DNA of 64,000 nucleotides from the NCBI GenBank assembly GCA_016281925.1, contig JAEEJP010000034.1, positions 33,665 through 97,664 of the forward strand. Direction: 5' to 3'. This DNA is from Methanomassiliicoccaceae archaeon (GTDB lineage: Archaea; Thermoplasmatota; Thermoplasmata; Methanomassiliicoccales; Methanomethylophilaceae). The notes beneath the pieces are model-generated. The model made no database searches. It was not told where the DNA came from and saw only the letters and a list, made by a program, of their open reading frames with translations. The translations under genes and the position numbers were made by a program. Shown piece after piece: positions 6,516 through 49,443 of the stretch (within the stretch, counting starts at the first letter, position 1; the number at the start of each line of letters is the position of its first letter).

Positions 6516-7229
6516 TCGCGCCCGCCACGGCGTATCCCATTCCCACGGGCGGATGACTTCGGTGTACATGGCGAGGCCAACCCCCGCTCCCTCCGCCCCG
6601 CACTCGGACAGTATCTCCGCGTCCTCTCTGGAGGTCACTCCGCCGGACGCTATCACTTTGTGCGGGCATGAGCGGATGAAATCCCTTGCCTGGCGCTCGT
6701 CTATGCCTTTCCTCCGGCCTTCGACGTCGACATTGGTGTTGAGCACCGCGGCCAGAGGCATCCCCTTTATGCGGGCGAACATCTCGCCTACGGTGAGCTC
6801 CGCGGATTCCTGCCAGCCTTTGACTGCGATGCGCCCGCCTTTGGTGTCCATGGAAAGAACCATCCTGCCGGGGAATTCGTCGGCCAGATCCGCGAGCCAA
6901 TCGGGATCCCTGACGGCCTTGGTCCCCACTATCACGCGGTCGGCGCCCGCCGAGATCAGCTCTCTGACGGCTTCGGAAGACCTTATCCCTCCGCCGATCT
7001 CCACCGGAACCCCGAATTCTTTTATGATCCTCTTGAAGACCGGGAAATTGTTCTCCTTCCCGAATGCTCCGTCGAGATCGACCAGATGGAGGTATTCCGC
7101 GCCTTTGCCTATCCACATCCCCGCCACGGCGACGGGATCGGGCATGACGATCTGCTGGCTTCCGGGTACGCCTCCCACCAGCTGGACTACCTGGTGGTCC
7201 AGGACGTCGACGGCAGGTATCACCCTCAT
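6516..7229 (-). CDS. hisA: ProFAR isomerase (end placed at CGA 6516-6518; standard code extends to TAA at 6450)
   Basis: IPAVDV, HLVDLDGAF, EIGGGIRS, GADRVIVGT, IASGGV; 237 aa to the CGA is a normal HisA length. Confidence 0.93.
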
Positions 7230-7831
7230 ATGCGCTCCTCCGCGAAGGCTATGAAATTCCGGAGCAGCTTCTTACCTGTAACACTGCTCTTCTCCGGGTG
7301 GAACTGGGTGCCGTAGACGTTGCCTTTCCTGAAGAAGCATCCGAACTCCTTCCCGTCGTATTCCGTGGTCCCGACGCATATCCCGGGATCGTCCGGGCAT
7401 CCGCGGTAGGAGTGCACGAAATAGAACATGCGGTCGTCCACGCCTTCGAACAGGGGATCGTCGGTCCTGACCTCGTTCCATCCCATATGCGGCAGGATTC
7501 TGCCTTCCATCTTCCTGACGTATCCAGAATAGTATCCCAGGCCGGGCTCCGAGCCTTCCTCGCTGCCTCCGAAAAGGATCTGCATCCCGATGCAAATCCC
7601 GAGCGCCGGGACGCCGGACTCCAGCATCGACAGTATAGTCTCCCTGTGCGGGAGAAGGGCTTTCGCGGTCCTGTCGAACGCCCCCACGCCGGGGAACACG
7701 ATGCATTCCGCGCCCTCTATCTTCGATATGTCTCTGATGACTTCGACGTCAGCCCCGCATCTCTCCAGCGATTTCGTGATGGAATAGATGTTCCCCACGC
7801 CGTAGTCCGTGACGGTTATCTTCAGCGGCAT
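7226..7831 (-). CDS. hisH: IGP synthase glutamine amidotransferase subunit
   Basis: DYGVGN, PGVGAF, LGICIGMQ, PHMGWN, YFVHSY, QFHPEKS. Confidence 0.97.
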   Translation of the reverse strand: MPLKITVTDYGVGNIYSITKSLERCGADVEVIRDISKIEGAECIVFPGVGAFDRTAKALLPHRETILSMLESGVPALGICIGMQILFGGSEEGSEPGLGYYSGYVRKMEGRILPHMGWNEVRTDDPLFEGVDDRMFYFVHSYRGCPDDPGICVGTTEYDGKEFGCFFRKGNVYGTQFHPEKSSVTGKKLLRNFIAFAEERI

Positions 7832-8871
7832 CCCGAAATCACCTCTTCAGCTTTCTCCAGAAGAAGCCTGTTCTGCTCCGGGGTTCCGACCGTGGTCCTG
7901 ACGCAGTTCTCCGTCCTGCGCTTCGCGCCGAAATCGCGTATCAGGATGCCTCTGCTCTTCAGCCCTTCCACCAGGGCAGCATGGTCTATCGGCGACCTGG
8001 CCAGGATGAAATTGGAATCCGACGGGAAAGGCTCGAACCCGAGTTTCCTGAGCCCGGCGGCCAGCTTCGGCCTCTGCTCCCTGACCATCTCGACGCTCCT
8101 CCTGACGAAATCCTGGTCTTTCACCGCCGCGATCGCCGCGCCCTCGCTGATCATGTTCAGCGAATACGGGATCTTCACGCACATCATCATCTCGGCCAGC
8201 TTGGGGTTCGACGCCGCATATCCCACGCGGAGGGCGGCCATGGCATAGGCCTTGGAGAAAGTCCTGAGCACGACGAGGTTGTCGAATTCGTCCACCCTGC
8301 GGATCATCGATCCCTCGGAGTATTCGGCGTAGGCCTCGTCGACGACCACTATTCCCCTGAATCTGGAGAGGATCTCCTCGATGTCCCTCTGCCTGAAGCA
8401 ATTCCCGGTGGGGTTGTTGGGCGAGGGCATTATCGCGATCTTCGCGTCCTGCCTGCATATCGCGTCCACGTCGAGCTGGAAATCCTCGGTGAGATCGGTT
8501 TCTATCGCTCTTCCGCCGTTCAGGCCCACGAAATAATCGTAAAGAGTGTAGGACGGGACGGGCACGACGCTGTTGTCGCCCCAGTTCATGAAAGTCTTGA
8601 ATGTTACGTCCAGAAGCTCGTCCGATCCGTTCCCGGCTATGAAATTGTCAGCCTGGAGGCCGTAAAGCTCCCCGAGAGCGGCCCTGAGGCCGTCCGAATA
8701 TGTGTTGGGATAGGAATCCAGCTGCCACCTGCCTCCGGCCAGATACATTTCCGCCGCCGGATTCGGGCCGAGGACGTTCGTGTTGGTGTCCAGCCTGAGC
8801 TCTCCGCTGAGCTTAGGATTGTAATATCTCTGGAAGCCGCGGGCGGTCTCCCTCATCACGCTGCGGTCCAT
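7822..8871 (-). CDS. hisC: histidinol-phosphate aminotransferase
   Basis: GNGSDE, PNNPTG, VDEAYAE, RTFSKAY..LRVGY; his cluster context. Confidence 0.95.
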   Translation of the reverse strand: MDRSVMRETARGFQRYYNPKLSGELRLDTNTNVLGPNPAAEMYLAGGRWQLDSYPNTYSDGLRAALGELYGLQADNFIAGNGSDELLDVTFKTFMNWGDNSVVPVPSYTLYDYFVGLNGGRAIETDLTEDFQLDVDAICRQDAKIAIMPSPNNPTGNCFRQRDIEEILSRFRGIVVVDEAYAEYSEGSMIRRVDEFDNLVVLRTFSKAYAMAALRVGYAASNPKLAEMMMCVKIPYSLNMISEGAAIAAVKDQDFVRRSVEMVREQRPKLAAGLRKLGFEPFPSDSNFILARSPIDHAALVEGLKSRGILIRDFGAKRRTENCVRTTVGTPEQNRLLLEKAEEVISGCR

Positions 8872-8872
8872 C

Positions 8873-9736
8873 TCAATCGACCAGCCTTTCTATCGGCATG
8901 GTCAGGATGCCTTTTGCCCCGACCTTCTTGAGCTCGGAGATGACGCGGTATACCTGGTCCGAATCGATGACCGCATGGACCGCGACCGTGTCCCCGACTC
9001 CGGATATGGGCACGACAGTGGGCCCGCCGATCCCGGGGATTATGCGCTCCACTTCGGGGAGGGCCGATTTGGGGACGTCGGCCATTATGTATTTCCTGCC
9101 CTCCGCGGCGATGACGCTGGCTATGGAGCTGACGATGAGGCCTATCTCTTCCCTGTGATCCTTCAGAGCGGAATCGGACGAGACGATGGCGGCCTGCGAC
9201 TCGACGATGGTCCCCACCTCCACGAGCCTGTTCATCTTGAGGGTGGACCCGGTCGACACCAGATCCACTATGTAATCCGAGATTCCGAGATAGGGCATGA
9301 TCTCCGCGGCTCCGGACACGACGATGACGCTGACGTCCTTTCCGTGAGAGGCGAAGAACTTCTTTGTGATCTTGGGGAACGAAGTGGCGATGCGGCTCCC
9401 GTCTTTGATGTCCTCGACGCGTCTCACGGGAGATCCCTCCGGAACCGCGACAGAAAGGCGGCAGAAGCCGAACCCGAGATCCAGAAGATCGATCAGGTCA
9501 TGGCCCGATTCGGCGACCTGGTCCAGTCCGGTGATGCCTATGTCGATCGCTCCCTTGTCGATGAATTCAGGGATGTCCTGGGCGCGGACGAACATGACCT
9601 CTATGTCCTGGTTCTTGACCTTGGCATAAAGCCTCCTGCCTATGTCGTCCCCGAGAACGAGGCCCGCTTTCGTGAGAAGCTCGATGGTCCTTTCGTTCAG
9701 CCTACCTTTGTTTGGGACTCCGAATCTGAGCGTCAT
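8873..9736 (-). CDS. hisG: ATP phosphoribosyltransferase (long form)
   Basis: PNKGRL, RAQDIP, DIGITG, DLVSTGSTL, C-terminal regulatory domain. Confidence 0.97.
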   Translation of the reverse strand: MTLRFGVPNKGRLNERTIELLTKAGLVLGDDIGRRLYAKVKNQDIEVMFVRAQDIPEFIDKGAIDIGITGLDQVAESGHDLIDLLDLGFGFCRLSVAVPEGSPVRRVEDIKDGSRIATSFPKITKKFFASHGKDVSVIVVSGAAEIMPYLGISDYIVDLVSTGSTLKMNRLVEVGTIVESQAAIVSSDSALKDHREEIGLIVSSIASVIAAEGRKYIMADVPKSALPEVERIIPGIGGPTVVPISGVGDTVAVHAVIDSDQVYRVISELKKVGAKGILTMPIERLVD

Positions 9737-9824
9737 TTGAATCCTTCCGTCGGATGCTTCGTATATGCGCGGTATAGATAAGGATGACGGGAAAGGAATC
9801 TGGCGCCGGAGGGCGGCCCGGCCC

Positions 9825-10568
9825 TTACAGACCCTTGGGCCCGAACTTCCTGTCCAGCTTGCAGTTCACGTCGCCGGTCCTCTCGTATTCGCGGATGCGC
9901 TCGTAATCCTCGATGTAATCGATCTCGCCCCAGAACAGATCGGAGACGTCCACCACCCTCACGTCATCCCTGTCGAGATAGTTGTAGAGGATGTTCTCCC
10001 ACCAAAGCCTGTATTGCTCGTTCCAGACCAGCTCGTCCATCCTGGCCGCGAACTTAGGGACGAAAGCGGCCGGTATGACGGCCATGCCCACGTATTCGCA
10101 GTTCCTCTCGTCCGGCTTCAGCTCCTTCCCGTATTTCCGTATGCATCCGTCCTATACGCAGAAGAAGAAATCGCCGATCTCGCGCCTCGAGCGGTCGGCA
10201 GCCATCACCGGGCCTTCCGATTCCATGAGCCTGTCCAGGATCTTATCGTCCCAGTAGACATCGGCGTTCATCACGAGGGCATCCTCGCCGTCCGAAAGGA
10301 ATTCCCTGGCCATCCACAGCGAACCGAGGCTGTTGGTCTCGGAATAAAAGGGATTCTCATAGAATCTGACATCGCATCCGTCCAGGCATCCGCGGATGAA
10401 ATCGCCTTCATATCCGAGGACCACCGCCACTTTGATCCCTCTTGCGGCCAGCATCTCGACGGTGCGCCTTATGATGGGCTTCCCCCCGACCTCTATGGTG
10501 CTCTTGGGGCGCATGAAATGCCTCTGAATCCTAGTGCCTTTGCCTGCTGCCAGCAATATCGCTCTCAT
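9825..10568 (-). CDS. LicC-like phosphocholine cytidylyltransferase-family NTP transferase with in-frame TAG at 10152-10154
   Basis: AILLAAGKGTR..PK, NSLGSL, NADVY before the TAG; CEYVG and WGEIDYIEDY in the same frame after it (FFCV*DGCIRKYGKEL). Confidence 0.8.
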
Positions 10569-11851
10569 TTCTTACCGTCCCTTCGGCGATATCCCATCAG
10601 AAGGTCGGTGTCGAACCGCCCCATCAGCATGGAATTCCCGTCCTCGTCATATACGTCATACAACGAATATATTTGGTCGATTGTTTCCTTCAGCTCCTCG
10701 GGCGAATCAGCGACGGCGAAGAATCTGCAGGCTATCTGCCTCAGGGTCCCTTCGCCGGAGATCTCGTCGCCCTCGTCATAGCAGGGGCTGACTCTGATCA
10801 CCCTGTCCAAACGGCCTATGGGACCGAGGCCGGCTATCCTGCCTATCTTCCCCGGTCTGGCAAGGACGGACAGCTTGCATCCCCAGCGGCCGCCCAGCAT
10901 CGGATCCGCTCTGCCGGAGATGCGGGAGCAGGACATGCGGCCTTCCATGGCATACTCTATCATCATCCTCTTGGTATCTATGCCGCAGGCCTCCGAGAAG
11001 ATGTAATGCTCCTGCGCCCCGCTGAGGCGGTATCCGGATTCGTAGAATGCTATCTTCCCGCTCGCGTCCGCGAACCCCTGGAGAAACATCACGCCGTCTC
11101 TGACGCCGGCTCTGCGGAACATCCCCTTGACGGCCCCGTCCTCCGATTCCATATATTTCCTGGTATGCTTCGAAGGGAAGACGTATGAGGTCGGGAGCTG
11201 GGCGAAGGATTGCATCTCATGGTTCGTGTAGCGGTCGCATAAGCCTAGGAGAACCGGCTCGCCGTCCTGGAACGCATAATAGACGACGACTTCCTGCCCG
11301 GACATGTACCTCTCGATCAGGGCTCTTCCCGAGCGCGAAAAACTGAGGGCTTCCTCGACCGCCGGCCGCAGGCCGCCGCGATCGTAGCAGACGGTTATCC
11401 CTCTGGATCCGCTGCTGTCCGCGGGCTTGACGATGAGCGGGAATCCGTCCGCGGGAAAATCCTCAATGCTTTCCCGGCTGTATATGCCTCCGCCCACCGT
11501 CGGAACGCCGCATCCCTCGCATAAGCTTTTGAAGGACTGCTTGTCGGAGAAAAGGCGCAGAAGCTCCCCGCTGGCATAGCAAGGCATATCCAGATCCGTG
11601 CATACCTTGCGGTAGACCCCCATGAGCATCTCGACCGCGCCCAGCACCACGCCGTCGACGCCTTCCGAACTGGCGATCTCCTCTATCTGATCCGCGTCAG
11701 TGCCGTCCACGTCGTAAGATCTGCGCGCATATCTCTTGGCATAAGCCTTGGGATCCGCATCGACGACCACGGTCTCAAGCCCCATGGAATTGGCTGTTTC
11801 GACCAATCCCGCCGTGGCAGAATTCCCGCCTATGACAAGCAACCGCGCCAT
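10565..11851 (-). CDS. ATP-grasp ligase (CGA at 10583-10585 may be the real end)
   Basis: DKQSFK, PLIVKPADSSGSRGI, LIERYM.G.E, FYE.GYRLSG. Confidence 0.85.
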   Translation of the reverse strand: MARLLVIGGNSATAGLVETANSMGLETVVVDADPKAYAKRYARRSYDVDGTDADQIEEIASSEGVDGVVLGAVEMLMGVYRKVCTDLDMPCYASGELLRLFSDKQSFKSLCEGCGVPTVGGGIYSRESIEDFPADGFPLIVKPADSSGSRGITVCYDRGGLRPAVEEALSFSRSGRALIERYMSGQEVVVYYAFQDGEPVLLGLCDRYTNHEMQSFAQLPTSYVFPSKHTRKYMESEDGAVKGMFRRAGVRDGVMFLQGFADASGKIAFYESGYRLSGAQEHYIFSEACGIDTKRMMIEYAMEGRMSCSRISGRADPMLGGRWGCKLSVLARPGKIGRIAGLGPIGRLDRVIRVSPCYDEGDEISGEGTLRQIACRFFAVADSPEELKETIDQIYSLYDVYDEDGNSMLMGRFDTDLLMGYRRRDGKK

Positions 11852-12026
11852 AAGCATTAATCGGAAACAGAGGTCATTATGCTTTCGGGCTGATTGTTGG
11901 GGCAACCTGATGGACGTACCATCTTGCTTGTCCCTGCGAAGCCGGAGGACAACCCGCAATCTCAGAAATATACCAGAACTGCGATGCTTCGCGTACCGGG
12001 CTTTCCCGGAGCAGAGAGGGACGCGG

Positions 12027-13742: not shown

Positions 13743-13827
13743 TTCGAGAGCCGGAGCTTCCGGCATACATCAAAAACGGCCGCTCGGGCCGATGGAAAAG
13801 GCGGGGAATGATCCCCGCCGTTTATGT

Positions 13828-14889: not shown

Positions 14890-15029
14890 GTTCGTTCCTC
14901 TGTAGTGGCCGGTGGTTATTCCTAAAATTTATAAATAATTGTGCATAGAAATAAAATAATAATATTCATAAATGAATATCCAAATCCATCCATGACAGCA
15001 AATAATAGGCAGAAACGGCATGCGCCCCC

Positions 15030-21700: not shown

Positions 21701-21787
21701 GACATGGCCCTGGAGGACGGCCTGATCATAGAGGAAGGCGGGAATCTGATGGCCGACGATTCGGGCGGCGTCATTCGGCGAGGCTGA
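15794..21787 (+). CDS. large DUF4011-SF1 helicase-Vsr-like nuclease-DUF3320 protein (Hhe-like) with N-terminal transglutaminase-like domain
   Basis: WKRDLLDITTRNPL (DUF4011); GPPGTGKSQTI; FDESSQ; GDRQQLPP; WHYRSRHESLI; VQGDERD; RRLNVAVSRA; FKVDLAV..GDGDSY..RDR..LGW; N-terminal GTCID..GHAFAG. Confidence 0.85.
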   Translation: MKLRLELEISKIGYVLYRNGMNPVLAASAEAEEDEKNITFTLRSDPPFIRKITFKADGIAAGTVLDLREHFNVALDPVRLLETAETMPCRVTLEAAGEDGTVKSESCDTEILPFEYWPGPDSPELIASFVTPNASCLARIRDSASETLRSWGKDPSLEGYGGDRNRVAEMAAAIYDAIQKLRIKYIVPPAGFEADGQRVRLADTVVSDREGTCIDVSVLYCSALESIGLNTFVFLVKGHAFAGFWLVDDHMADVISIDSSAITRLIRNRDARAVECTYLCDGHAAPFDSASEAALKRLEDAESFSCAVDIRKSRPAIRPLPTRRYENGVWSVEKDEFDTRSSAPKEVGEVYEAAEDRALTRVDIWKRDLLDITTRNPLVSMKVGAKAVPLLVGNTSEFGEAFAKGAQFTLMPKPQDWDGAGIYSERPFETETYVGNYAGSFGDELSRGWIRTPLGEADTVSSLKSIYRLYKKEMEESGCNSLFVAVGVLRWFESKGDRIPRYSPLILIPAELSKKQKGYAIEPYDEEAVFNVTLAEKLRQEYDISIPGIDPLPMDDGGLNVDRITQSVRRCIEGLEGWEVLDGAALGVFSFSQYAMWKDLEKNMGRLAENPVVEAMVSGGIYHADPDLEADADPYGLCLTVPADASQIKAVRAASEGKTFIMHGPPGTGKSQTITNIITDAIYRGKTVLFVAEKRAALDVVEKRLDGIGIGNHCLELHSDKTEKSKVLEQLRKAMDPCKEYDGSKLEETVAKLNAVKEKLDAYVSDLHRKQSWGFSAYECISLYEARNVAGAKDLRISTDTALRMKPETIGNLEDDIIKACQAYSIASGMCDTEALESIHADVPAASLQYDIEEAMDEALAAADALDAAGPRIAAAGILGDADQAGKAVSMIMSADARMASDPNLARIPELVPRIVSLSDSIFGAFAAWDPKEVRQDEAVRMMKDSGELSALASEASDAGWLPANSAIRSSAESVRTFCSKLISMRPDLDRIESQWRPEVYDFNSSYDIKKGWHEADGKVLFKSAAKKKFMSDVSKVLRPGASFDSLGITSDMISAAAQDFRSLSSVPGRISSASAGIFSERSALSDILNRATKTIAEAESVGISAGRLHELRAALESSGGGAEDYQAAVSRWEAARDRLISIMKTDADISQPDRCREYCGSIRPYLSGVFDWANWNYYASKLGEEGLGASCDAIRSGMAAEDVVNSTYKSLYRTMINLCRQESESLRMFNASTFEGTIERLRKLDAEYAEINRSLLKYRLYKSVPRNIDGSVPDSEAGKVYRAVSAGRMKKSIRTLLSEIPHMLPRLCPCLLMSPQSVAQYLTMDYPKFDLVIFDESSQITTSKAIGALGRGKAAVIAGDRQQLPPTRFFQKQMETEESEEEIEDMESFLEDCLALNMPQTYLEWHYRSRHESLITFSNRVFYDGKMLTFPSPNDQETKVGMHYVREGKYLKGRRCNPIEASAVIDEVYRRVMSRGYKGESIGIIAFSISQQNCIEDAMDEMTSKHPRFQQRLGKMSESMFIKNLETVQGDERDIILFSIGYGPSRDGTVVQNFGPINRPGGGRRLNVAVSRARCEMVVFSSMRYTDVKLTPASSSGVRSMREFLRFAENDGRFGEQDRARPVEDMSAIMKDISESLGEIGYESHFGIGSSGFKVDLAVVDPENPQEYILGILGDGDSYRRSENTRDREFARSDVLVRLGWNIMHVWSVDWFFNKKLTLKKIENRIEDILAKRAESAEEDGGELIPDDAPADEEPKEERPEGAVPGTEPEEGEPKDGIPEETSQEITYDPGEDMGQDIPEPEEEEPRRRTYIPLSLQFPDVPQDLALSDRQTIEEIAGKIIGMESPVNEEQLLALYKKCAGIKRLTGQKKLALTDILRRTFGPEIRGEFVTYWAEGADRSIPTYRAAGSPADSRDIDCIPLTEMMNACADVVESSVSISKTSCALAAGKALGFKRPGASVIAMMEKAIDMALEDGLIIEEGGNLMADDSGGVIRRG

Positions 21788-24404: not shown

Positions 24405-26897
24405 TCAGCGCTTCTCCGATTTCCTCTTGAGCCTTATGGTCTCGAGGCCTTTCGCCCATCTGACCGGATCTTTCTCGTAGGCCTTAGCGGTCCACCTCTC
24501 GGCCATAGCCAGATTCAGCGGCACTCCGCGGCCGTAATGGTATGCGCGCCCCAGACGACCCATGGATCCGGGGCTCCCCTGGTTCGCGAACGGAAGGATG
24601 GAATCGATCATCTCCTTGTCCGTGGCCGGCGAAGGGTTCTGCCAGAATATCTCGAACAGCTCCATGGCCGCCAACACCATCCCTTCCGAAACGCCTTTCC
24701 TGTACCAGAAAACAGCTTGATCCGTGTCTTTCTCGCATCCCAGGCCGTCGCGGCACATGCGCGCCCTGTAGACGTAAGCATGCTTCACGCCCCTGTCCGA
24801 CAGCGCGATGCATCTCTTGAAGGCCTCTTCGTGGAACTTATCCTCCGAGGCCAGAAGCGTCTCGTAGAACTCAGGGAACCAGACCGGATCCCTTTCCTGG
24901 GCGCGCCTGAGCCATCTGCGGGCCAGATGGAGGTCCTGCTGAACCCCGCGGCCGTAATGGTATACTTTTCCGAGGCGGCCCATGGCGGACACCGAACCGC
25001 CTTCGGCCAGCGAACGGACCAGATCCCTCAGCTTGAGATCCTACATGCGGTCGTTGAACGTCCAGAGGACATCGAAATATTCGATGGGAGCCCATTCCAC
25101 CTTGCTCTCCACGGCCATGGCATACCATTTCGCGGATTCGCAGAGATCCCTCTTGACGCCTTTCCCGTCACGGTATATGCGACCGAGGAACCCGTAAGCA
25201 TATCTGGCGCTCCTGTCGCAGCGCTCGAGGCATACCTCCTTGGCTTCCTGGTAGTATTCCTCCTTGCCGGAGCTCAGCAGAAGGCCGCAGTATTCCTGGA
25301 GCCAAACCGGGTCCTTCCTGTACGCCCATCTGAACCATTCGATGGCGTCGTCCACATCCTTCGGGTATCCCCTGCCGTCCCTGCTCATGCGGCCTCTGCG
25401 CGCGATCGCGGACATGTCCTCCGCCTCCAGCAGAGGAGTTATGAGATCGATCATCTCCGGATAGTACTTCTCCTCGCCTGTCGCCCAGAGCATGTCGAAA
25501 AGCTTGATCCTGGACGTGTTGAATCCGTCTGCGATCTCCTGCCTGAGGGCGTCGATCGTTATCGCCCAGTATCTCTGGGCCTCCTCGCGGTTCTGCTCCA
25601 CGCCCACCCCGTAATTGTAGGCTCTGCCGATGCGCGACGCGGCATGCATGTCGCCTTCGTCTGCGTAGCCTTTGATCCTTTCGAAGCATTCGGCCACCCA
25701 TTCCTTGTTGCCGCTCTTCCAGGCGCTGTCGAACTCCTCCAGGGAATCGAAGATCTGGCCGGTGCGCAGGAACTCCTCGTCCCCGTTGGCCCTGAAATTC
25801 TCGAAAACCGGCTGGAAATAGTGGTCGTCCTTCCTCGAATAAAGGTACCACATGTATCTGTACTTGAAATTGTGATAGAGATCCAGATCGTAGATCCCCG
25901 AGAACGGCTCCAGCTTGCCGACGGAATCCAGAGCCATGATGTTCCTCATGCACTTGTCGCAGCGGGAACAGTTCTCGTAGGACGAGGTGCAGGACACTAG
26001 ATGCCTCTGCGCGATGGGATAATCGGCGAGAGCCACTGTCTTGTCGTACCTGGCCACGGTAGGGGCGTCGATGTATATCCTCATGGACGATGTGCTGAAG
26101 CAGTTCACCGTGAGCAGCTCGTATTTGGACGGCGGGAACATCAGATGCCCTCTGATGCTGAATTCCGTGATGCAGTCCACTCCGGATGAAGCATAGAAAT
26201 AGTATTTCCACAGCTTTTTGAGGCAGAATATGGCGAAAGACGAGGTGTACGAATGGGTCAGATAATGGTTCTGATGTAGAACCTCGTCGACATCCGAATC
26301 GGTCTCGATGAGCGGGAGGCCTATCTCCTCCGAGGCGGCGCGGGCGTTGGCGTACATCCCCTTGCGGACCTTGTCTATGCCTTCCATCCTGTAGATCCCG
26401 TTGAAAGCGCCCACGTTATTGATGCACAGGTGGGTCAGCCTGAACTCCGGATCGGGATAATCCCTCAGCCTCATGACGGTGAACAGGGAATCCACGCCGC
26501 ACGAAAGGCCGGTCCCGACCGCCTCGCCGCCCCCGACGCTGCTGGCCGTCTCGATGATGATGTCCGCAGGGTAGCCGTCGTTCTTGGTGAACGGAGGAAG
26601 AAACTGCTCCTTGAGATTGTAGTAGAGGTCGTTGGATATGGGGATGTCGGATCTGATGTTGTACCCGTTGCTGACCGCGTATCTGATCAGCAGGACAACG
26701 TAGGCATCGCACCTCTCCGTTAGGAGATAGTCGGAATACTCGGACGGGACGGAGAACCTGATCACCTTGGTCTCGACGGTCACGGCACCGTCTTCGCCCG
26801 TATCCGATATGTCTATCCTGCATTTCAGATCGGAGACGCCGCCGTTCTCCTCCTTCCAGATCTCCCTGATGGTTATGTCGCCCAGAACGGATTTCAT
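24405..26897 (-). CDS. PP-loop/QueC-like domain + SEL1 repeats, with in-frame TAG at 25041-25043
   Basis: GLSCGVDS, SCTSSYENCSRCDKC; SEL1 repeats continue in frame across the TAG (NDRM*DLKLRDLVRSLAEGGSVSAMGRLG). Confidence 0.78.
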
Positions 26898-27030
26898 TCT
26901 CGCTCCCCACGATGGCTTTCCATATATGCCCGACTAATAAATATTAATACTACCCGAACGCACGGAGGATATGATATTCCATGTCGAAAACCGGCAATCT
27001 CTCTTATAGAACGACCAAGATTCTCCCGCC

Positions 27031-29713: not shown

Positions 29714-30628
29714 ATGGATGCCTCGGGCATTGCAAGCGATCTGCGCGTTTGGACGGTAGGAGCGCTGGCTCTTGGCCTCCTGATAGGCAGGACAGACATC
29801 CCGTCTTCGGAGCTCATAATAGTCGTCCTGATGATCCAGATGACCCTGTCCCTGGACGGCCTGAGGTTCTCCGCCGAAGACATCAGAGACGGCGGCAGGG
29901 AATTCCTGCTGTCGATGCTTCTCTGCTACGGGGTAAACACCTCGGCGACCGTCGGCATCGGGCTGCTTTTCGCCGGGGACAACCCCGAGATCTGGCACGG
30001 ATGGGCCCTTCTGGCCTCGATGCCATGCGCCATATCGGTGGTCACGGCGGCCGTCCTTATGAAAGGGAACATCAGGGCTGCTGTGTCCGCGGTGGCTGCC
30101 ACGTATGCCGCCGGATTGGCGCTGACCCCCCTGATCTCCTTCGCTCTCCTCGGGGACGCGGTGAATCCTATGGAGATTCTGAAGTACATCGTGCTGTTCA
30201 TCGCGGTCCCGGTCATAGTGAGCATCCCTCTCAGGAAACTCAGGCTGCCGAGGAATCTGAAGATCCCGCTGATCGACATGATGATGGGGATCATGCTGTT
30301 CCTTTCGGTCAGCGCAAACCGCGATTACCTCGTGTCATACCCTGGATTGGCGCTGGCTGTCATAGCCGCGGTGGCCGGAAGGCTTCTGCTGCTGATAGCG
30401 GTCTCGAGATTCCTGATGAAGAAGCTGAGGGTCGATCCCGCTTCCAGGCCCGTGTTCCACGTGCTATGCGTTTGGAAGAACACAGGGCTTTCCGTGTCCA
30501 TGTGCATGGTGCTGCTGGCCGATACCCCGGAATCCGTCATCCCATGCTTCATATGCATGATACTGGAGTCGCTGTGGTTCTCCGTATACACGCGCGGAAG
30601 CGCATCTCCCGCGCCGCAGGGAGCATGA
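29714..30628 (+). CDS. multi-pass membrane transporter, bile acid:Na symporter-like
   Basis: About 9-10 hydrophobic segments; PCAISVV..GN and KNTGL motifs. Confidence 0.7.
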   Translation: MDASGIASDLRVWTVGALALGLLIGRTDIPSSELIIVVLMIQMTLSLDGLRFSAEDIRDGGREFLLSMLLCYGVNTSATVGIGLLFAGDNPEIWHGWALLASMPCAISVVTAAVLMKGNIRAAVSAVAATYAAGLALTPLISFALLGDAVNPMEILKYIVLFIAVPVIVSIPLRKLRLPRNLKIPLIDMMMGIMLFLSVSANRDYLVSYPGLALAVIAAVAGRLLLLIAVSRFLMKKLRVDPASRPVFHVLCVWKNTGLSVSMCMVLLADTPESVIPCFICMILESLWFSVYTRGSASPAPQGA

Positions 30629-30910
30629 TCGCTCGAAATAATGCTTCTGCCTTTCCTTGGAGATGTGGAGGATGACTTCGGCGATCTGCCTGGCCTCGTC
30701 CTCGGAGAGGCTGACTTCCTCGCAGAGCTCGTGGTATCTGCTGATGACTTCGCGCTCTTTCTCCTCGTTCCAATAGCCTTCCGAAGACCTTCTCTTCGCT
30801 TTGGCGAGCTCGTCCGCTATCTCCATGCGAGTCGCGATGAGATCGATTATCTCCTCGTCTATCGATTCGATCTGCATCCTCAGCTCGTCCGTCTCAGGCT
30901 CCTCGGGCAT
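30629..30910 (-). CDS. chorismate mutase (AroQ type); end placed at CGA 30629-30631 (standard code runs on to TAG at 30464)
   Basis: LRMQIESIDEEIIDLIATRMEIA..K..REREVI..ISKERQ AroQ pattern. Confidence 0.85.
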
Positions 30911-34578: not shown

Positions 34579-35264
34579 TAGCCATGCTGGATGGGATAAA
34601 AGCAGTCGGATTCGATATGGACGGGACGTTCCTTAAGACGCACGTCGATTACTCCGAGCTCGGAGCGGTCGACCGCGGCATACTGGAATCCCGCGGGATA
34701 CCTTTCGACGAGGTATACACCCGCGAATTCATCAAAAGGCCGCGCTGGCCGATAAAAGACTGGCTGGAATCCCATGGCCGCGGAGACGAATTCGACGCCG
34801 TCTCCGGGGAGATAGACGCCGCAATGACCGCCGTGGAGAAGGAATACGTCTCGGAAGCGGTGCCATACCCGAAATCCAGGGAATGCCTGGCCGAACTGAG
34901 GGCAATGGGCCTGAAGACCGGGCTGCTGACGCGCGGAAGCCTGGAATACGCCGAAGCCGCCCTGGAAGTCACCGGCACCAGGGACGGGTTCGACGCCGTC
35001 ATGGGGAGGGACCACTCCTCCTACGACGAAGCCAAGCCATCCCCGGCTGCCATGAGGCAATTCGCATCGCTTCTGGGCGTCGATCCCTCCGAAATCCTCT
35101 ACGTCGGCGACAACATAACCGATTATATGTCGGCGCACGGGGCCGGAGCGCAGTTCGCCGGCGTCCTGACCGGAAGAGGGACGGAAGAGAAATGGAGGGA
35201 AACCGACCCCTCCATCTACATCCTGGAATATGCCGGGGACTGCGTCGGCCTGTTCAGAAGCTGA
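34575..35264 (+). CDS. HAD-superfamily hydrolase
   Basis: FDMDGT, KPSP, YVGDNITD. Confidence 0.9.
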   Translation: MIAMLDGIKAVGFDMDGTFLKTHVDYSELGAVDRGILESRGIPFDEVYTREFIKRPRWPIKDWLESHGRGDEFDAVSGEIDAAMTAVEKEYVSEAVPYPKSRECLAELRAMGLKTGLLTRGSLEYAEAALEVTGTRDGFDAVMGRDHSSYDEAKPSPAAMRQFASLLGVDPSEILYVGDNITDYMSAHGAGAQFAGVLTGRGTEEKWRETDPSIYILEYAGDCVGLFRS

Positions 35265-36633
35265 GGCCGCAATCGGCGAGAGTGTCTAGAGCGGAATCGT
35301 AGACCCCGAGGTATTCCTGGAGCGGAGTGGCGTCGTTGACATTGTAGCACTCCTGATAGGTCTTCCCCGGAGGCGCGAACGAGAAATTGAGCTCGTACTT
35401 GGAGACTATCTTGTCGAGGATTCTGTTGACTTCGGATATTTCCATGCCGCAGGTGGCCGCGGAAGCCTCCCCCAGCATCCTCGCTTCCAAGCCGGTGGCC
35501 TTGTCCAGCGCGACCCCCTTTGCCGAAGCGACTCCGGACAGGAGCTCCCTTCCAGATGCGGTATCGGCTATCGCCTGCGCGGCGACCTCGAGAAGGCACA
35601 TCTCGGTGCAGGGGCCGGCCATGGCATAGTACTGGTTGGCCAGCAGCAGGTCTGTGTTGTAATCCAGAGCCGCGGCGGCATGGGCTGCGACCTGCAGAGT
35701 CTCCCTAGTGGTCGTGGTTCCCCATCTGATATGGATGGGCCCGTCCAGATGTATGTCGGCATTGAAGGCCGCGAACGATGCCAGAGTGGTTGCGACATCG
35801 CAGATCGCCGTCTCTTCCACTCCGCCGGCATATCCGCCGAACATAGGCATCTGCTCGATCATGATTATGTCCCCGGCGGAATGCCACCCGGATATTATGT
35901 TCAGAGCGCCCATATCGATCTTGAGCTCGTTGAGCTGGGAGCACTCGTGGGGATCGTACATCCTCATGCCGTTTGATCCGAGCCCTGCGGCCAGACGTCC
36001 GTCCGGCGAGAGCGGGGTCTGCGGGCCCTATATCCCCATCCCGGGCCTCCCTGAATTGGCGACGGCCTCGCGGACGTATCTGACCTCGGCCATGGTGGCT
36101 TTGATCTCCCAGGGCGTGTTGGTAAGCACCTGATGGCCGTCCACGGTCTCCAGGACGCCGCTGACGATGCTGTCCACCATGGGCTCGTCCGCATAGGACT
36201 CTATTATCGATGTGAAGATCTCCTCGGACACCGGGGCGCCGGTGGGCCCGCCTTGGATGATGGGCCTTTTCTTGGAATTCCCGACGCGGGCCTTGCATTT
36301 GCACCTGTCCTTTCCGTGGCCGATATTGAGCTTGCGGGGAGCCATCTTGATCCCCTCGTAGAGCTCATCCTCGTCGATGTGCATGACGCGGCCCAGATCT
36401 ATGTTGTAGATGCCGGTCTCAAGCAGCATATCCACTCCGGCCAGGAAAAGATTGTCTGCCATGTCCTGGTCCTCAGGGACGATGTTTCCGCCGAAATCCA
36501 GGTCGTAGCGGTCCTTCATGAGGACTGCGGTGCTGTGGACTATATTGTAGTCCCAGTAAGGCTCCTGAACCTTGTCCCCTTGGGTGAAGCGGTCGTACGC
36601 CTCGAAAACGTCTACGTATCTGCGGGCTGCCAT
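35254..36633 (-). CDS. mtmB: monomethylamine:corrinoid methyltransferase (pyrrolysine at TAG 36028-36030)
   Basis: GGPTGAP, GRPGMGI*GPQTPLS matches the canonical Pyl site; QLNELKID, EQMPMFGGYAGG, DGPIHIRWG, SGVASAKG. Confidence 0.96.
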
Positions 36634-36804
36634 TCTACCTTGATAGTGGATGCAATGCCATATTTATAATATTGCTTTTTGAAGTGCCGTTTTGAACAAA
36701 ATTAGGCATCGTTTAGATTCTATTATATATCAGATCGGGAAAAATCGCGTCATTTTTAAGAAAAGATTAAATATAGTTCTTTTTGGGCGCTGTCATGCGG
36801 ATTT
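36634..36804 (-). promoter_or_regulatory. AT-rich mtmC-mtmB intergenic region with a TATA-like box at about 36661-36670
   Basis: Minus strand ATTATAAATA about 28 nt upstream of the mtmB ATG. Confidence 0.45.
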
Positions 36805-42502: not shown

Positions 42503-42511
42503 GCGGATCCC

Positions 42512-43735: not shown

Positions 43736-44166
43736 TGCAATCCCTCCAGGAATTCCTTGGTCTGGGCGACGAAATTGACCGCCTGCTCGTCGTTCTCCGG
43801 GTAGGTGACCCTGAGCGCCGGGATCCCGCGCCTTTTTATCAGATATTTCACCATGAGATTGGACCTCTCGCATCCCACGCATCCGAAGCTGTATGGGCAG
43901 TCGTCCATGATGATGGCGGCGTCCGCCTCATCGATGAGGGGGCCCCAGAGAGCGAGCCTTCCCCTGACCCCGGACGGGACCTCCACTCCGGCGTATTTCA
44001 GCCCTTTGACGACGTCGTCGAGGGTGACGTTCATCGGCGGCATGTCCACCTCTATGTTGTCGACCCTCTCCTGGATGGCGGCCATGGTGCTGAGCGGTTC
44101 GTGCCCGAACCTTTCGACCAGATCGAAAAGCACCAGGCTGTTGGGCGGATCTATGAAGACCTTCAT
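43732..44166 (-). CDS. mmp5: methanogenesis marker protein 5
   Basis: [38 protein letters not shown]. Confidence 0.92.
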
Positions 44167-44585
44167 CGGCGTACCTCGCAAATTCTCTTGAAATCGTTTA
44201 CTGGAATGCGTTTCTTTTCCTCCGGAGGGACGTATCTGGCGCCTTTGGCGACCTCGTCCAGGCCGTGCTGGACCCTGGCCAGCAGCTCCCACTCCATCTC
44301 CAGCTGGGCATATCCCGGCCTGGTCCCGTGCATGGCGCGGCATCTCCTGGGGTCGCTGCTGGGGTACGCCCTGATCTTCGTGAACACCTCGTTGGGATAT
44401 CCTTCCCTGACCCTGTCGCGTATCGAAAGAACCAGCTCCCTGGGCCCTTCGACGAGGCACCCGTAGCATGTCTCCTTCACCAGAGCCTCCGCCCCGTACG
44501 CATGGACCATGCGCGCGAGCTGGTCCGGCGTGAGCGTGGATCTGGGCGATATCATGAACAGTCTTGTCTCCCTGGTTTCGCTCAT
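44163..44585 (-). CDS. mmp6: methanogenesis marker protein 6
   Basis: VKETCYG..EGP, F.K.R.YP..D.RRCRA..G.RPG..QLE.E; ends CGA-TGA. Confidence 0.9.
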   Translation of the reverse strand: MSETRETRLFMISPRSTLTPDQLARMVHAYGAEALVKETCYGCLVEGPRELVLSIRDRVREGYPNEVFTKIRAYPSSDPRRCRAMHGTRPGYAQLEMEWELLARVQHGLDEVAKGARYVPPEEKKRIPVNDFKRICEVRR

Positions 44586-46099
44586 AAATCCGCCTCCGTC
44601 ACATACACCGTGGCATCCTCCTCCAGGCCGTCCATCAGCCTGTCGAGGTCGTCCACGAACTTCCCTATGATGTTGGTCCCGTAGGGCTCCTCGCCGGTGG
44701 GGCCGTATTCCTTGCTGTCCTTCAGCCTTATGCCGATGAGGCCGTGGTGAGGCCTGGCCTGGTTGGTAAGGCCGATGTCCCCGCGCTTGGACTTCTTGAA
44801 GGGGTCCTGGGGGTACAGATTCTTGCCTCTCATCTCGTCGCCGTAGAAAGTCACCATGGGAAGCCCTTCGAAGGTGAACTGGACCTTCAGAGTCCCCACC
44901 GGCTTGTGGCTGAGGCCGGTTATCTTCCTGAAATACATGTTGCTGGCCGGATCTGAATCCGTCAGCTTGATCCTGAACACCCTGTCCCTCGGGACTCCGA
45001 AAGTCTCCACCTCCCCGTCCTTCAGGGCCTGCATGGTGCGCTCCGGGCTCTGCTCCGCGATGATCGCGCCGTCCGAAACGTCCCCGGTCCTGATCTGCTT
45101 GATCCCGGCGGCCTCCAGGAACTTGGCCCCCTCCGCCTGGGTCATCCCTACGGACAATGCGCGCGGAGGATCGGTGGTAACGGCGAACACGTCGCCCGCT
45201 TTGGCGCGGGAAAGGATCGCCGCCCCCTGGGTTATGTTCCCGGCCGACGTATGGCCGGGCGAGAGCTGCCTCTTCTCCTTGTAGAAGAACAAACGCCCGG
45301 TCCCGATGCCGCTGTTCCTGACCGCGACCGCCCCGGCGTCCCTTATTGCGATGTTCTCCGCCGGGATCTGGACGTCCAGATCGTCGGAGCATGATACGAA
45401 GCTGCCGGTGGCGTCCGTCGCCCTGATGAATCCCTGGCTGGAAAGCACGAGCACATGCTCGGACGCTTCGGGAGACGCCGGATCCAGCTTCACGGAAACG
45501 GAGGTCTCCACCCTGTACCCGTCGTCCAGCCTGAATGACAGGTCGTCCGTTACCACAACGTTCTCGGTGCTGGTCTCGGACATCAGCGGGCGGACGCCGA
45601 TTATGCGGTCCCCTTCCCTGATCTTGTCCAGTATGTGCCTGCCGACGGTTATCCTGCCGATCAGGCCGTGTCCGGCGCCGTATGAGCCGCTGTGGTTGTC
45701 CCTGGCCACCATGATGTAGGTGGTGTGGTTGTCGAACCCTCCCAGCGCGAAGAAGCAGTCGTACACCCTGTAATGGAACGTCTCCCTGCTCACTTCCAGA
45801 TCGGTGGGGAACGATCCGAAGGCGGCGATGTCGTGGGTGACCCACCTGGCGTTGGCTCCGGCTATGGACTGGGCCACTTTGGACCTCCACATCTCGGCCA
45901 GAGGCGAATCGTTCAGGCGCATGACCATGGTCCCGGCTTCGGTCTCGATCTCGAAGTCGCTGGTCTCGGTGACCACCTTCTCCTCGGACAGATGGACGGA
46001 AATCAGGGAGCCTTTGACGTAGGTCTCCCCGGCGATCGCGGTCTTGAGCGTGGAGCCGGCTTTGAGCTTCTTCTCCTTGCCGTTGACGGTGACTATCAT
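44582..46099 (-). CDS. mmp3: methanogenesis marker protein 3 (cyclophilin-like)
   Basis: [36 protein letters not shown]. Confidence 0.9.
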
Positions 46100-46722
46100 T
46101 CCATACCGCGCTCCGGAAGCATGGACTGCACTTTCGACACGATCTCGTCCAGCTTGTCCTGGTCGCAGGTCACTCCCCTGACGACGCCGGTGACGATGTT
46201 CACGATCTCGCCTTTGGTCTGTATCTTATCGTCCGGAGGCATTACGCGCGACGTCTTGACGCCGATCGCCGCGAAATCCTCGAAGTCTATGGGGCACTGG
46301 GCTACGATGATCGCAGGTATGTTCACGTTCCTGAGAATGAGCCTGGCCTTGTAGATGATGTGTGCCCTGACGTTCCCCAGGTGGATCAGCGCCACCTTGT
46401 ATTGCTGGATCCTCTCCACCTCGATCGGGTCGAGGCCGAAGCAGGATCCCGTAGTCATGTCCGGCGCGTCGGCCGGGACTCCCGAGCCGGCGTTCACCAC
46501 CAGGACGCTGGTGTCTATCCCCTCTTCGCGGAGCGCATAGGTAATCTCGCAGACTGGCTTGGTGATGTGCCTCCTTCCGGGGCCCATCGCTATCGCCACC
46601 ACGTCCCTCCCGGACTCGGAGATGGTCGCCCTCTGAGCGAGACCTCCTCCGACGCCGAGGCCCATCGATTCCCTGCACTCGACGAAGCTGAGATGCCTTC
46701 CCATCTTCTGCTTCAATTTCAT
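46096..46722 (-). CDS. mcrC: methyl-coenzyme M reductase operon protein C
   Basis: [45 protein letters not shown]. Confidence 0.93.
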
Positions 46723-48326
46723 TCACCTTCGGGCACTGGCTCCATGTTGAACTCCTCGAGGATGTCCTCGGGGTTCCCGATGGATACGACCGTTCCGTTC
46801 TTCATGAAGGCGGCGCGGTCGCAGCAGTTCATAACGAAATCCATGTCGTGGCTGACGACTATGAACGTCTCTCCCAGGGTCTCCCTCGCCCTCACCACTG
46901 ATTTCGCCACTATCGTCTTGGTGATCGGATCCATGGTCCCGGTGGGCTCGTCCAGTATGATTATGCGGGGCTCTTTGATCAGGACCTGGGCGAACGCGAT
47001 CCTCTGGCACTCCCCTACGGAAAGGGAATCCGGATAGGAATAGAGGGTCTTCTCGACGGTCTCCTTGGGGAAGCCGACGCTGGTCAGGACCTGGATGGCC
47101 TTGACCTTGGCGAGATCCGCGGGCATCTTCATGCCGATGCATGTGGTGAGGTTCTGGAGGACTGTGTCGAAGGGATACAGCGTGTATTCCTGGTGGAGGA
47201 CGCCGATATACGGGGTCGCCCTCCCTTTTCCGGCGAACCCGCTCTCCGACATGTCGACCCAGTCGTCCCCGATTTTGATCTTGACGGTGCCCGAAGTTGC
47301 AGGTGTCATCCCGGCGATCATGCGCGAGGTGGTGGTCTTCCCCGCGCCGGAATAGCCTATCAGGGCGAAGACCTCCCTCTCTTTGATGTCGAACGACACT
47401 CCGTCGACGGCTTTGACGACCCCCCTGACCACCGAGAAATAGTGCTTTTTGGCGTTGTCGAGGACGATTATGGGCTCGCCCAGCTTCCCGACCGCCTGCT
47501 TCTCGAAATGGTAGTCCTTCATGAAGAGATCGGTGACTTCCTTGGGGTTCCCCTGCTTGACGACGTCGCCGGCCTCCAGGAGGATGGCCTCGTCCGCCAT
47601 CCTGGTGATCGCCTCCGGCCAATGGGACGCGAACACCATGCAGATGTTCATCTTGCGCACGTAATCGATGAGCCCCTGGTGGACGGTCTCCGCCGTGGTG
47701 GGATCCAGAGTCCCGGTGGGCTCGTCGGCCAGGAAGAACAGCGGCTCTTTGGCGAGCTGCCTTGCCATGACCACGCGCTGCTTCTCTCCTCCCGACAGAT
47801 CCCTGGCGATGTGGGTGGTCCTGTGGGTCATGTTGACCATCTCGATCATCTCGATCGCGCGCCTGACGCGTCTCTCGCCCTCGTAATCCGGGGTGACGGC
47901 CTCCATGACGTTCTCGATGACCGTCTTGTCGCCGAACAGGGCGAAAGTCCTCTGAAGCATGATGGCGATATGGGATTTCACAGCCGATCTGAGGGGGTCG
48001 TCCTCTTTGAGCGCCCAATAGTCCACCGCCAGCTTCTCGGTGTCACCTCCGCATTTCACGCAGGGGATCCCCTTCAGCGGGAGATCCAGGTCGCCGCATT
48101 TCTTGCAGCGGTTGACATGATAAATCACGCGCCCGGTGTCCGGGGCGTACTCGTCGCTGCCTCTGAGCATGTGGATCAGAACGCTCTTTCCGGCCGCGCT
48201 CTTCCCGACCAGACCGAGGATCTTCCCCGTGGAAAGCTTGGCGCTGACATTCTTCAAGACGCATCTTCCGTCGAAGGATTTGGAGACGTTCTCGATTTCC
48301 AGAAGGTCGACAGATTCTTGAGCCAT
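46719..48326 (-). CDS. atwA: methyl-coenzyme M reductase system component A2 (ABC-type ATPase)
   Basis: Two ABC cassettes (GKSAAGKS; GYSGAGKTT), Zn motif [23 protein letters not shown]. Confidence 0.95.
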
Positions 48327-48445
48327 ACGCTCCGTACAATCTTCTGCCAATAAATAATATCTGAAAATTGCCGTCGGTCCGGCCGGGCAATAGCTGCCTC
48401 CGGCCATAACCGGAACCTAAATATCCGCCCACTTGTCCAGACAGT

Positions 48446-48460
48446 CAAAACTATTTAAAT
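48446..48460 (+). promoter_or_regulatory. BRE/TATA for the divergent DUF2111 regulator operon
   Basis: CAAAACTATTTAAAT ending about 20 nt before ATG 48481. Confidence 0.5.
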
Positions 48461-48480
48461 TGGATGAAAGATGCATCCAT

Positions 48481-49443
48481 ATGACCCATGGATCGGCCAA
48501 ATCAGGCGGACCCCTGCCGAAATACAGCGACTACCACATCTGGAAGGCCATCGAGACCCTCGACGGCAGGAACACCATCGGCAGGAAGAAGCTGGCGGAG
48601 CTCCTTGGAATCGGGGAAGGAAGCACCAGATCGATAATATCCATCATGCAGGAGCAGGGCCTGGTCACGATCGGCAAAAGCGGAATCCTTCTCACCGCCA
48701 AGGGCATGGAATTCAGGAAGAAGACCCATATGGAGATCGCCCCGGACATAGACGTAGACGGCCTCACCATAGGGGAAGCCAACGTTGCCGTCCGCATCCC
48801 GAAGATGGCCAGGAGCGTGAAGTACGGGTGCGAGGAGAGGGATGCGGCCATAAAATCCGGCGCATCCGGAGCTACCACGCTGATTTACACGGGCGGGAAG
48901 CTGTCGTTCCCTGGCTCCGACCATCCGGTGGACGCGAAAGCGGAAGAGAGCATAAGATCCTGCTTCCAGCTCAAGAGCGACGACGTCATAATAATAGGGA
49001 CGGGGCCGACACTCGAAGCGGCGGAGATCGGCGCGGTGAACGCCGGACTGGCCATTCTGGGAGGGATGAGATTCGGACGCGAGCTGGAGGACATCCTTTC
49101 GTCCCGCAGCTCCGGCAGCGAGCTCATCTCCCTTGCGTTCGCCATCCACGACCTGGTCGGAGGGCTCCCGGTCTGCGCGAAGAGCAGGGACAACCTCGGG
49201 ATAAGGATAGAGAACGGAAAGGTCATAGACAACGCGTATACCGGCCAGGTCCTCGAGGAGGTCATCAGCGCCGGTACCACGATACGCAAGATCGCCGTTT
49301 CCGGGCCTTACAAAGGCATCAGGGTCATTGTAACCCCGATAGAGCTGGACAACCGCATCATCGCGGCGATCGGCGTGGTCGACATAAGGTCGATGGCAGG
49401 CGCCAACAACCTCATCAGGCTCAGGAGCGACGACAATGAGCGA
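48481..49443 (+). CDS. wHTH + DUF2111-like domain regulator; end placed at CGA 49441-49443 (standard code runs on to TAG at 49855)
   Basis: IGRKKLAELLGIGEGSTR HTH; RDAAIKSGA.GATT; C-terminal YTG.VLEEVI..GPYKG..VIV.PI..IAAIGVVD. Confidence 0.8.

Follow-up and report, generated by a model that had tools for sequence, protein, structure and literature searches.

Does the codon CGA, which means arginine in the standard code 11, end translation in a free-living archaeon? The question is raised by a stretch of 64,000 nucleotides (nt) from a Methanomassiliicoccaceae archaeon, hereafter the window (contig JAEEJP010000034.1, here C56:33665-97664), in which an earlier note had marked six in-frame CGAs at or beside the expected ends of genes and had proposed that CGA is a stop codon there and that TAG encodes pyrrolysine. 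The whole genome (G000) comprises 1.96 Mb in 122 contigs, with 57.8% GC and a completeness of ~86%. Its genus, in the family Methanomethylophilaceae of the order Methanomassiliicoccales, takes in 'Ca. Methanoprimaticola sp. MG2' and many metagenome-assembled genomes (MAGs) from the rumen and gut.

As judged from the DNA, we show that CGA no longer serves as an ordinary sense codon in this genome and behaves as a termination signal interchangeable with TGA, the tail from CGA to the next standard stop being non-coding in character. We are fairly confident that CGA is a leaky, context-dependent terminator, most likely read by the release factor aRF1 in competition with a weakened but retained tRNA-Arg(UCG), and that a few read-through sites exist, including one of probable autoregulation in the aRF1 gene itself. 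The proposal that CGA ends translation thus held up in every test that we applied (coding-end points, ortholog stops, gene overlaps, context, and spread across the genus). Its simplest form, a clean code in which CGA is a stop and nothing else, did not, because the tRNA is kept, the aRF1 gene has an internal CGA, and the recognition motifs of the factor are unchanged.

CGA at the ends of genes

Genes were drawn from stop-to-stop open reading frames (ORFs) of at least 450 nt, which a multinomial mixture sorted into classes on codon usage; the class with the longest ORFs and a third-position GC content (GC3) of 0.74 supplied 1372 confident ORFs in G000. A genome-wide positional count in this set found CGA nearly absent from coding cores and concentrated at gene ends, as the earlier note had expected. 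In coding cores, CGA occurs in frame at 0.21 per 1000 codons, compared with 28 per 1000 in other frames. This avoidance is frame-specific and therefore translational, and a general avoidance of the trinucleotide, whether through restriction or mutation, is ruled out by its abundance in the other five frames. At the last codon, CGA stands in frame at 26 per 1000; at 81 to 150 codons before the stop, the frequency has dropped to 1.1 per 1000. The enrichment of CGA in the last 20 codons (7.65-fold) is the highest of the 61 sense codons, the runner-up standing at 2.5-fold. With flanks of 25 codons, coding signal was present on both sides of 14 CGAs, compared with 512 CGT and 746 CGG codons, while 152 CGAs had coding signal before and non-coding sequence after them. 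When the flanks were set at 40 codons, only 7 CGAs genome-wide had coding signal on both sides.

By a strict criterion, a CGA was counted at a coding end if it lay within -3 to +10 codons of the point where coding signal stops. The first CGA past the gene midpoint did so in 204/297 cases, against 56/404 for CGT (Fisher p = 1.5e-51), and 194 to 204 genes have a CGA at the coding end by this strict count. When we instead went from the middle of the best coding-score segment to the first candidate terminator in all 1372 genes, that terminator was CGA in 285 (21%), TGA in 949, TAA in 90, and TAG in 48. The share of genes in G000 that end at CGA is thus about 14 to 21% (194 to 285 genes). Measured from where the best coding-score segment ends, these CGAs sit at a median of +2 codons (interquartile range, -1 to +7), close to the +3 (1 to 6) of standard stops, and control rare codons sit ~50 codons inside the segment. 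The third-position GC periodicity is lost after CGA. Among codons one step away from TGA or TAA (AGA, GGA, TCA, TTA, and CAA), none piles up at stop positions; only CGA does. Reading through CGA would also create overlaps with neighboring coding cores of more than 60 nt in 40/194 genes and of more than 150 nt in 25, where the baseline for overlaps above 60 nt is 9/1372 (p = 9e-30).

These figures bear directly on the conventional alternative, in which CGA still simply encodes arginine and the tails are translated, the pattern stemming from stop losses (TGA to CGA) that were tolerated, together with extreme codon bias. Such a reading can point to the functional-looking tRNA-Arg(UCG), to standard stops that lie nearer after CGA than after TGA, and to CGAs with an arginine reading, one in aRF1 and probable ones at two domain junctions (all described below). 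We nevertheless regard it as very unlikely. It leaves unexplained why CGA alone piles up at stop positions and why the codon has been lost from sense positions with its tRNA kept. It demands the 40 out-of-frame overlaps, offers no reason for the preference for T after the codon that is described below, and adds non-conserved tails to a fifth of the proteome, with a median length of ~15 to 20 codons and more than 100 codons in about a tenth. A frameshift to a standard stop, the route attributed to human mitochondria, is ruled out, since no stop codon has the form NCG or GAN.

The six CGAs cited for the window all exist and are in frame (6/6), and in the window none of the confident ORFs has a CGA at an internal position confirmed as coding, in line with the earlier claim. 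The remaining in-frame CGAs of these ORFs precede the Pfam domains and probable starts, in 5' extensions of the stop-to-stop frames. As evidence for termination, the six sites divide evenly: those in hisA, the chorismate mutase gene, and the DUF2111 regulator are informative, and those at 10583, 21779, and 44166 are not, each being followed by TGA 0 to 5 codons later.

In hisA (6519..7229, minus strand), the candidate terminator at 6516..6518 stands at residue 238, past the Pfam domain His_biosynth, which ends at residue 226 of 259. Beyond it, a run-on tail of 21 codons plus TAA (6450..6515, minus strand) is not conserved: the aligned codon is TGA in G001, G008, and G015, TAA in G087, and CGA in G004, and nothing downstream of it aligns between species. 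The chorismate mutase gene is closed by a candidate terminator at 30629..30631 (minus strand), at residue 111, with CM_2 ending at residue 106 of 165. Its run-on tail of 54 codons (30464..30628, minus strand) is antisense to a convergent gene that ends at 30628; the aligned codon is CGA in G001 and TGA in G004, with no alignment past it. The strongest single site is the CGA at 49441..49443 (plus strand), residue 337 of the DUF4443/DUF2111 regulator (48433..49440, plus strand; Pfam CggR_N, DUF4443, and DUF2111, the last domain ending at residue 318). Among 11 congeners, nine have TGA at this place in the alignment, one has TAA, and one (G003) has CGA; G087 has TAA. Read-through here would carry the regulator frame for 138 codons across a DUF6951 gene that lies in a different frame (49436..49780, plus strand; Pfam DUF6951, E = 5e-31).

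The other three sites are ambiguous. The CGA at 10583..10585 (minus strand) lies 5 codons ahead of the TGA of an ATP-grasp gene for which no ortholog was found in five relatives, and that at 21779..21781 (plus strand) lies one codon ahead of the TGA of a 2025-aa ORF whose single match in a relative ends short of the C terminus. The CGA at 44166..44168 (minus strand) stands immediately 5' of the TGA of the DUF2102 gene, forming a CGATGA that overlaps the ATG of the DUF2112 gene. Genome-wide, the codon just 5' of TGA is strongly enriched for NNA codons (AGA, 52 per 1000; CGA, 26 per 1000), as at 44163-44168 on the minus strand of the window. This enrichment probably reflects ATGA start/stop overlaps such as CGATGA; it inflates the count of CGA at the last codon and is unrelated to termination.

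Orthologous stops were compared systematically over 200 to 340 kb sampled from each of five relatives, and CGA was found to align with TGA, TAA, or CGA terminators. For CGA-ended genes, the relative has a terminator within 2 codons of the aligned position in 59/70 comparisons (TGA in 40, TAA in 5, CGA in 14). The corresponding figure for TGA-ended genes is 305/343, and the difference is not statistically significant. In the opposite direction, 18 TGA stops of G000 are CGA in a relative. In these alignments, TGA and CGA exchange between species in the manner of synonymous stop codons.

Context and spread of terminal CGA

Terminator CGAs are followed by T (the +4 position) in 53.6% of cases, compared with 26% of all CGA trinucleotides and 27.9% of CGAs later in the tails (p = 4e-16), and the same bias recurs in G001 and G004. 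The next standard stop lies at a median of 15 codons after CGA and 27 codons after TGA (p = 1e-6); it falls within 10 codons for 45% of CGA ends and 25% of TGA ends. The proportion of genes that end at CGA is 9.5% in the top decile of codon bias, 21% overall, and 25% in the bottom decile. Taken together, this +4 preference, the near backup stops, and the scarcity of CGA ends among the most codon-biased genes make CGA look like a stop that is weak and dependent on context.

The short context might also be read as an editing motif (C before the codon, T and then G or C after it), and a single transition separates CGA from UGA. It is conceivable, then, that C-to-U editing of the mRNA turns CGA into a standard UGA stop, but we consider this highly improbable. 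In the other two frames, where CGA is frequent (28 per 1000), editing guided by a motif would introduce missense changes; between ~200 and 285 sites would have to be edited specifically without known machinery in archaea; and the CGAs of the aRF1 and GmhA-GmhB genes, described below, must remain readable.

The trait is genus-wide in the genomes compared, and its strength varies. Next to the 14 to 21% of G000, coding-end CGA was found in 11% of ORFs in G001 (0.32 per 1000 in coding cores), 5.3% in G004 (0.07 per 1000), 4.8% in G015 (0.09 per 1000), and 3.3% in G008 (0.12 per 1000), all of the same genus, with G015 and G008 each assembled as a single contig. Two genomes represent other genera of the family. 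G087, probably Methanomethylophilus, has 1/148 ORFs with coding-end CGA and 0.08 per 1000 in coding cores. In G032, probably Methanoplasma, coding-end CGA is equally rare (1/152), and CGA is internal at 1.32 per 1000, in normal sense use. As G087 avoids CGA yet rarely ends genes with it, avoidance is older than the heavy use of CGA as a terminator, which peaks in G000. For the low-GC relatives G044, G037, G024, and G036, our classifier performed poorly (13 to 46 ORFs each); their CGA figures are weak, and we draw no conclusion from them.

This spread leaves next to no chance that the CGAs are assembly or base-calling artifacts for a true T. Dozens of independent assemblies, made by varied projects and assemblers and including the two single-contig genomes, share these features; CGA stands at stop positions in G001, G003, G004, G008, and G015; and the CGA of the aRF1 gene is found in more than 40 distinct sequences. 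Three gut-metagenome contig sets of low share were found, from one study and mostly from relatives. One identical contig of 197 nt spans window positions 30437-30633 and so provides an independent copy of the chorismate mutase site at 30629. The positions of the terminal CGAs, their conservation, their context, and their spread are thus direct observations.

aRF1, tRNA-Arg(UCG), and candidate read-through sites

As to the molecule that reads the codon, we infer that the single aRF1 would do so, accepting C instead of U before GA as yeast eRF1 does. It would outcompete tRNA-Arg(UCG), made a poor competitor by a mismatch of its pair 31-39 (C:A or A:A). Termination would be leaky and favored by T at +4, and the tRNA would read through conserved CGAs in a non-T context, namely, codon 81 of aRF1 and the GmhA-GmhB and MrcB_N-MPG junctions. 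There is precedent for such competition: the yeast eRF1/eRF3 complex detectably terminates at CGA in competition with the tRNA, and R, F, or Y at position x of the YxCxxxF motif enhances this activity (PMC7379694). The aRF1 proteins of the order have R at this position, so a latent capacity to read CGA is plausible.

The tRNA was suggested earlier to be lost, which is not the case. The 45 tRNAs that ARAGORN predicts in G000 include tRNA-Pyl(CUA) and the complete set of five tRNA-Arg species, to which tRNA-Arg(UCG) belongs. The gene for tRNA-Arg(UCG), at C39:13195-13268 on the plus strand, has counterparts in 4/4 other congeners sampled. Its anticodon-stem pair 31-39 is A:A in G000 and C:A in the four other congeners; in every other genus of the family that we inspected, the two bases do pair. 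We take it that this mismatch weakens decoding.

Of the 7 CGAs with coding signal on both sides at 40 codons, three are gene junctions or have no coding sequence upstream: two part genes in the same frame (CbiX/CfbA from a Mur-ligase-like gene, and two methyltransferases), and one has no real coding upstream. Another falls at a conserved Gly, and three are conserved special sites. An internal CGA at a conserved Arg, which the earlier note would have counted against its proposal, thus does exist: the aRF1 gene has one, and two further conserved in-frame CGAs join enzyme domains. Because of these three sites, we conclude that CGA keeps a residual reading as arginine, which argues against a clean code in which CGA is a stop.

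The aRF1 gene (C62:11485-12723, minus strand) encodes a protein of 413 aa with canonical NIKS and YRCDSQF motifs. In it, the conserved Arg that lies 20 residues past NIKS (NIKS+20) corresponds to codon 81, a CGA, and this codon is CGA in 41/42 distinct genes of the genus. The protein has 19 conserved Arg columns; CGA is used only at NIKS+20 and at none of the other 18. The Leu codon that follows drifts (CTC, CTA, CTG, CTT), with C at +4 in 51/51 genes of the genus that carry the CGA. In other families of the order, the codon at NIKS+20 is CGT, CGC, AGG, CGG, or AGA, and aRF1 genes in other genera of the family mostly have a single CGA, at NIKS-33 or NIKS-47.

In bacteria, the prfB gene for release factor RF2 has an early in-frame UGA followed by C, and ribosomes complete its translation by shifting into the +1 frame, helped by a Shine-Dalgarno-like stimulator. 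By analogy with prfB and with eukaryotic data, C at +4 would be a weak termination context here as well. The likeness is as follows: in both cases, a codon read by the factor stands early in the factor's own gene, has C at +4, and is strictly conserved. It suggests self-regulation of the prfB kind, and we infer that the aRF1 CGA could act as a negative feedback in which surplus aRF1 ends its own synthesis early, as at the UGA of prfB. The likeness has limits. Unlike prfB, the aRF1 frame runs unbroken through the CGA, a programmed +1 frameshift with an upstream stimulator was not found in the aRF1 gene, and completion would need read-through by tRNA-Arg(UCG).

The second conserved site joins GmhA (SIS domain) to GmhB (HAD phosphatase) in one frame (C17:6079-7293, minus strand). 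The junction is CGA in 8/9 close congeners and AGA in the remaining one, no start codon was found at this junction before the HAD catalytic motif, and in G007 and G005 GmhA and GmhB are two overlapping genes. The arrangement looks like programmed partial termination that would give GmhA plus a GmhA-GmhB fusion. At the third site, an MrcB_N-like domain is followed by CGA, with A at +4, and then by a methylpurine-DNA glycosylase (MPG) in the same frame (C111:10902-12251, minus strand). This arrangement is also present in G001, and no canonical start codon was found between the CGA and the N terminus of the glycosylase. None of the CGAs at the aRF1, GmhA-GmhB, and MrcB_N-MPG sites has T at +4, and from their sequences all three look like sites of programmed read-through or attenuation.

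A second way to account for terminal CGA without arginine is that the codon is unassigned or "hungry", so that ribosomes stall on a scarce or weak tRNA and are then freed by rescue (splitting of the aPelota/ABCE1 type or peptidyl-tRNA drop-off), with no reading by aRF1. This would predict the same in-frame avoidance, the same CGAs at gene ends, and the same nearby backup stops, and both the 31-39 mismatch and the unchanged recognition motifs of aRF1 speak in its favor. Rescue routes, however, are normally poor at freeing a finished, untagged protein, yet 14 to 21% of genes rely on CGA. The strong +4 preference also fits recognition by a release factor, which senses this base, and a strictly conserved CGA in the aRF1 gene is sensible only if the level of aRF1 matters at CGA. 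On balance, we think this explanation unlikely, if the most serious of those weighed here.

Several points count against direct reading of CGA by aRF1 as a leaky stop. The support for CGA termination is entirely at the level of DNA, and the gene set comes from a home-made codon-usage classifier and not from curated annotation. The enrichment of backup stops and the under-use of CGA in genes with high codon bias are equally expected from partial read-through. The tRNA-Arg(UCG) gene appears functional, being retained with compensatory changes in the acceptor stem across the genus, and so CGA can still mean arginine. A comparison of aRF1 motifs with those of relatives found NIKS, YxCxxxF, and the GTS region canonical, with no genus-specific change, the earlier note having proposed such a comparison; the five differences fixed in the genus all lie away from these motifs. 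The Y-R-C motif is found across the whole order, CGA-using lineages included.

At NIKS+7, all Methanomethylophilaceae have Met (or Leu) and other families of the order have Arg (or Gln), and in most Methanomethylophilaceae Ala replaces the Ser before SNIKS. The change of Arg to Met is ruled out as the cause of the trait, as it is family-wide and includes the CGA-using Methanoplasma lineage; it might be linked to the change of TAG to pyrrolysine. As far as its sequence goes, nothing within aRF1 explains the CGA trait. Finally, a radical-SAM HMPTM-like gene (C24:25503-27500, minus strand) has an internal CGA where 22/23 relatives have a conserved Gly (GGN), which rules out a sense Arg site. This GGA-to-CGA change may be a truncating mutation or the mark of a pseudogene in G000, or else a read-through variant from Gly to Arg.

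Known systems and the TAG codon

To our knowledge, CGA is not established as an extra stop signal in any free-living organism. Sense-to-stop changes are known from organelles, namely, vertebrate mitochondrial AGA/AGG, Scenedesmus mitochondrial UCA, and Thraustochytrium mitochondrial UUA, and termination at AGA/AGG in human mitochondria is attributed to a -1 shift onto UAG. As in these cases, a sense codon is gone from coding positions and present at gene ends. Those genomes are tiny and have few genes, whereas the present case concerns hundreds of genes in a free-living archaeal genus that has retained the cognate tRNA and in which no frameshift at the codon could reach a standard stop.

A close biochemical parallel is the misdecoding of CGA in yeast (Wada & Ito 2018, PMC7379694), which shares the codon, the eRF1/aRF1 family, the competition with a poorly decoding tRNA-Arg, and the detectable reading of one CGA at the end of a gene as a stop. 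There, however, termination is a minor side reaction in a reporter, boosted by mutants (PMC7379694), whereas here we see apparent reliance on it for 3 to 21% of gene ends and evolutionary exchange with TGA. The dual-meaning codons of ciliates and trypanosomatids (e.g., Condylostoma; PMC4967479) are also similar, as they act as stops at gene ends and as amino acids at internal sites, here few, according to context and to factor-tRNA competition. In Condylostoma and its like, standard stops gained a sense meaning; here a sense codon gained a stop meaning, and its internal use is nearly nil.

Our literature search found no report of CGA termination in Methanomassiliicoccales, and methods of the Codetta type cannot infer stops. 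A related proposal in archaea is a speculation that CGA is a stop in two hydrothermal-vent MAGs in which CGG is reassigned to Trp (Melnykov 2026, bioRxiv 10.64898/2026.04.02.715157). In those MAGs, as here, CGA is absent from recognizable domains in an archaeon. They are unrelated, lack a tRNA-UCG, and come with no evidence of termination, whereas the tRNA is kept here and there is positional, ortholog, and release-factor-gene evidence.

In its fullest form, the picture would be that of CGA as a true fourth stop, which aRF1 reads directly across the genus and which rests on an older, family-level capacity, balanced by a deliberately weakened tRNA-Arg(UCG), with aRF1 regulating itself through its conserved CGA. 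It would mark the first time that a cellular, non-organellar genome has reassigned a sense codon to stop and, with TAG as pyrrolysine, would mean a code altered in two opposite directions. We judge the odds of this fuller picture to be slightly better than even.

If CGA does end translation here, the capture of a sense codon for termination is possible in a free-living organism. The stages of reassignment would be visible within one family, from avoidance only (G087) through 3 to 5% of gene ends (G008, G015, G004) and 11% (G001) to about 14 to 21% (G000), and the route of codon reassignment would therefore be directly testable, including an ambiguous intermediate in which release factor and tRNA compete. 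Gene calling with code 11 or code 34 would misplace the C termini of up to a fifth of proteins and fuse neighboring genes in common methanogens of the human and ruminant gut. The genus would also offer a natural pair of an eRF1-family factor and a tRNA reading C at the first stop position, as well as a candidate archaeal counterpart of prfB autoregulation. This may be of relevance to groups that use the Methanomethylophilus PylRS/tRNA-Pyl pair in genetic code engineering.

The reading of TAG as pyrrolysine that was proposed together with CGA agrees with our data and is already published for the family as "code 34", in which all TAG codons encode pyrrolysine in Methanomethylophilus and other archaea (bioRxiv 10.1101/2024.09.30.615893); CGA is mentioned 0 times in that work. 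The two cases share the organism family, the tRNA-Pyl, and coding that continues past TAG, but code 34 is a stop-to-sense change, whereas that of CGA is sense-to-stop. In G000, the tRNA-Pyl(CUA) gene is on contig C94, the third-position GC periodicity continues past in-frame TAG, and orthologs extend far past the TAG position in 5/6 comparisons. TAG thus behaves, by these signals, as a sense codon genome-wide, matching code 34. Three in-frame TAGs of this kind are found in the window. One, at 36028-36030 (minus strand), is where same-frame coding ORFs at 35254-36027 and 36028-36663 abut, a pair whose size and layout would fit the mtmB of the earlier note. Another, at 25041-25043 (minus strand), is where those at 24405-25040 and 25041-26933 abut, and the third, at 49855-49857 (plus strand), likewise behaves as a sense codon.

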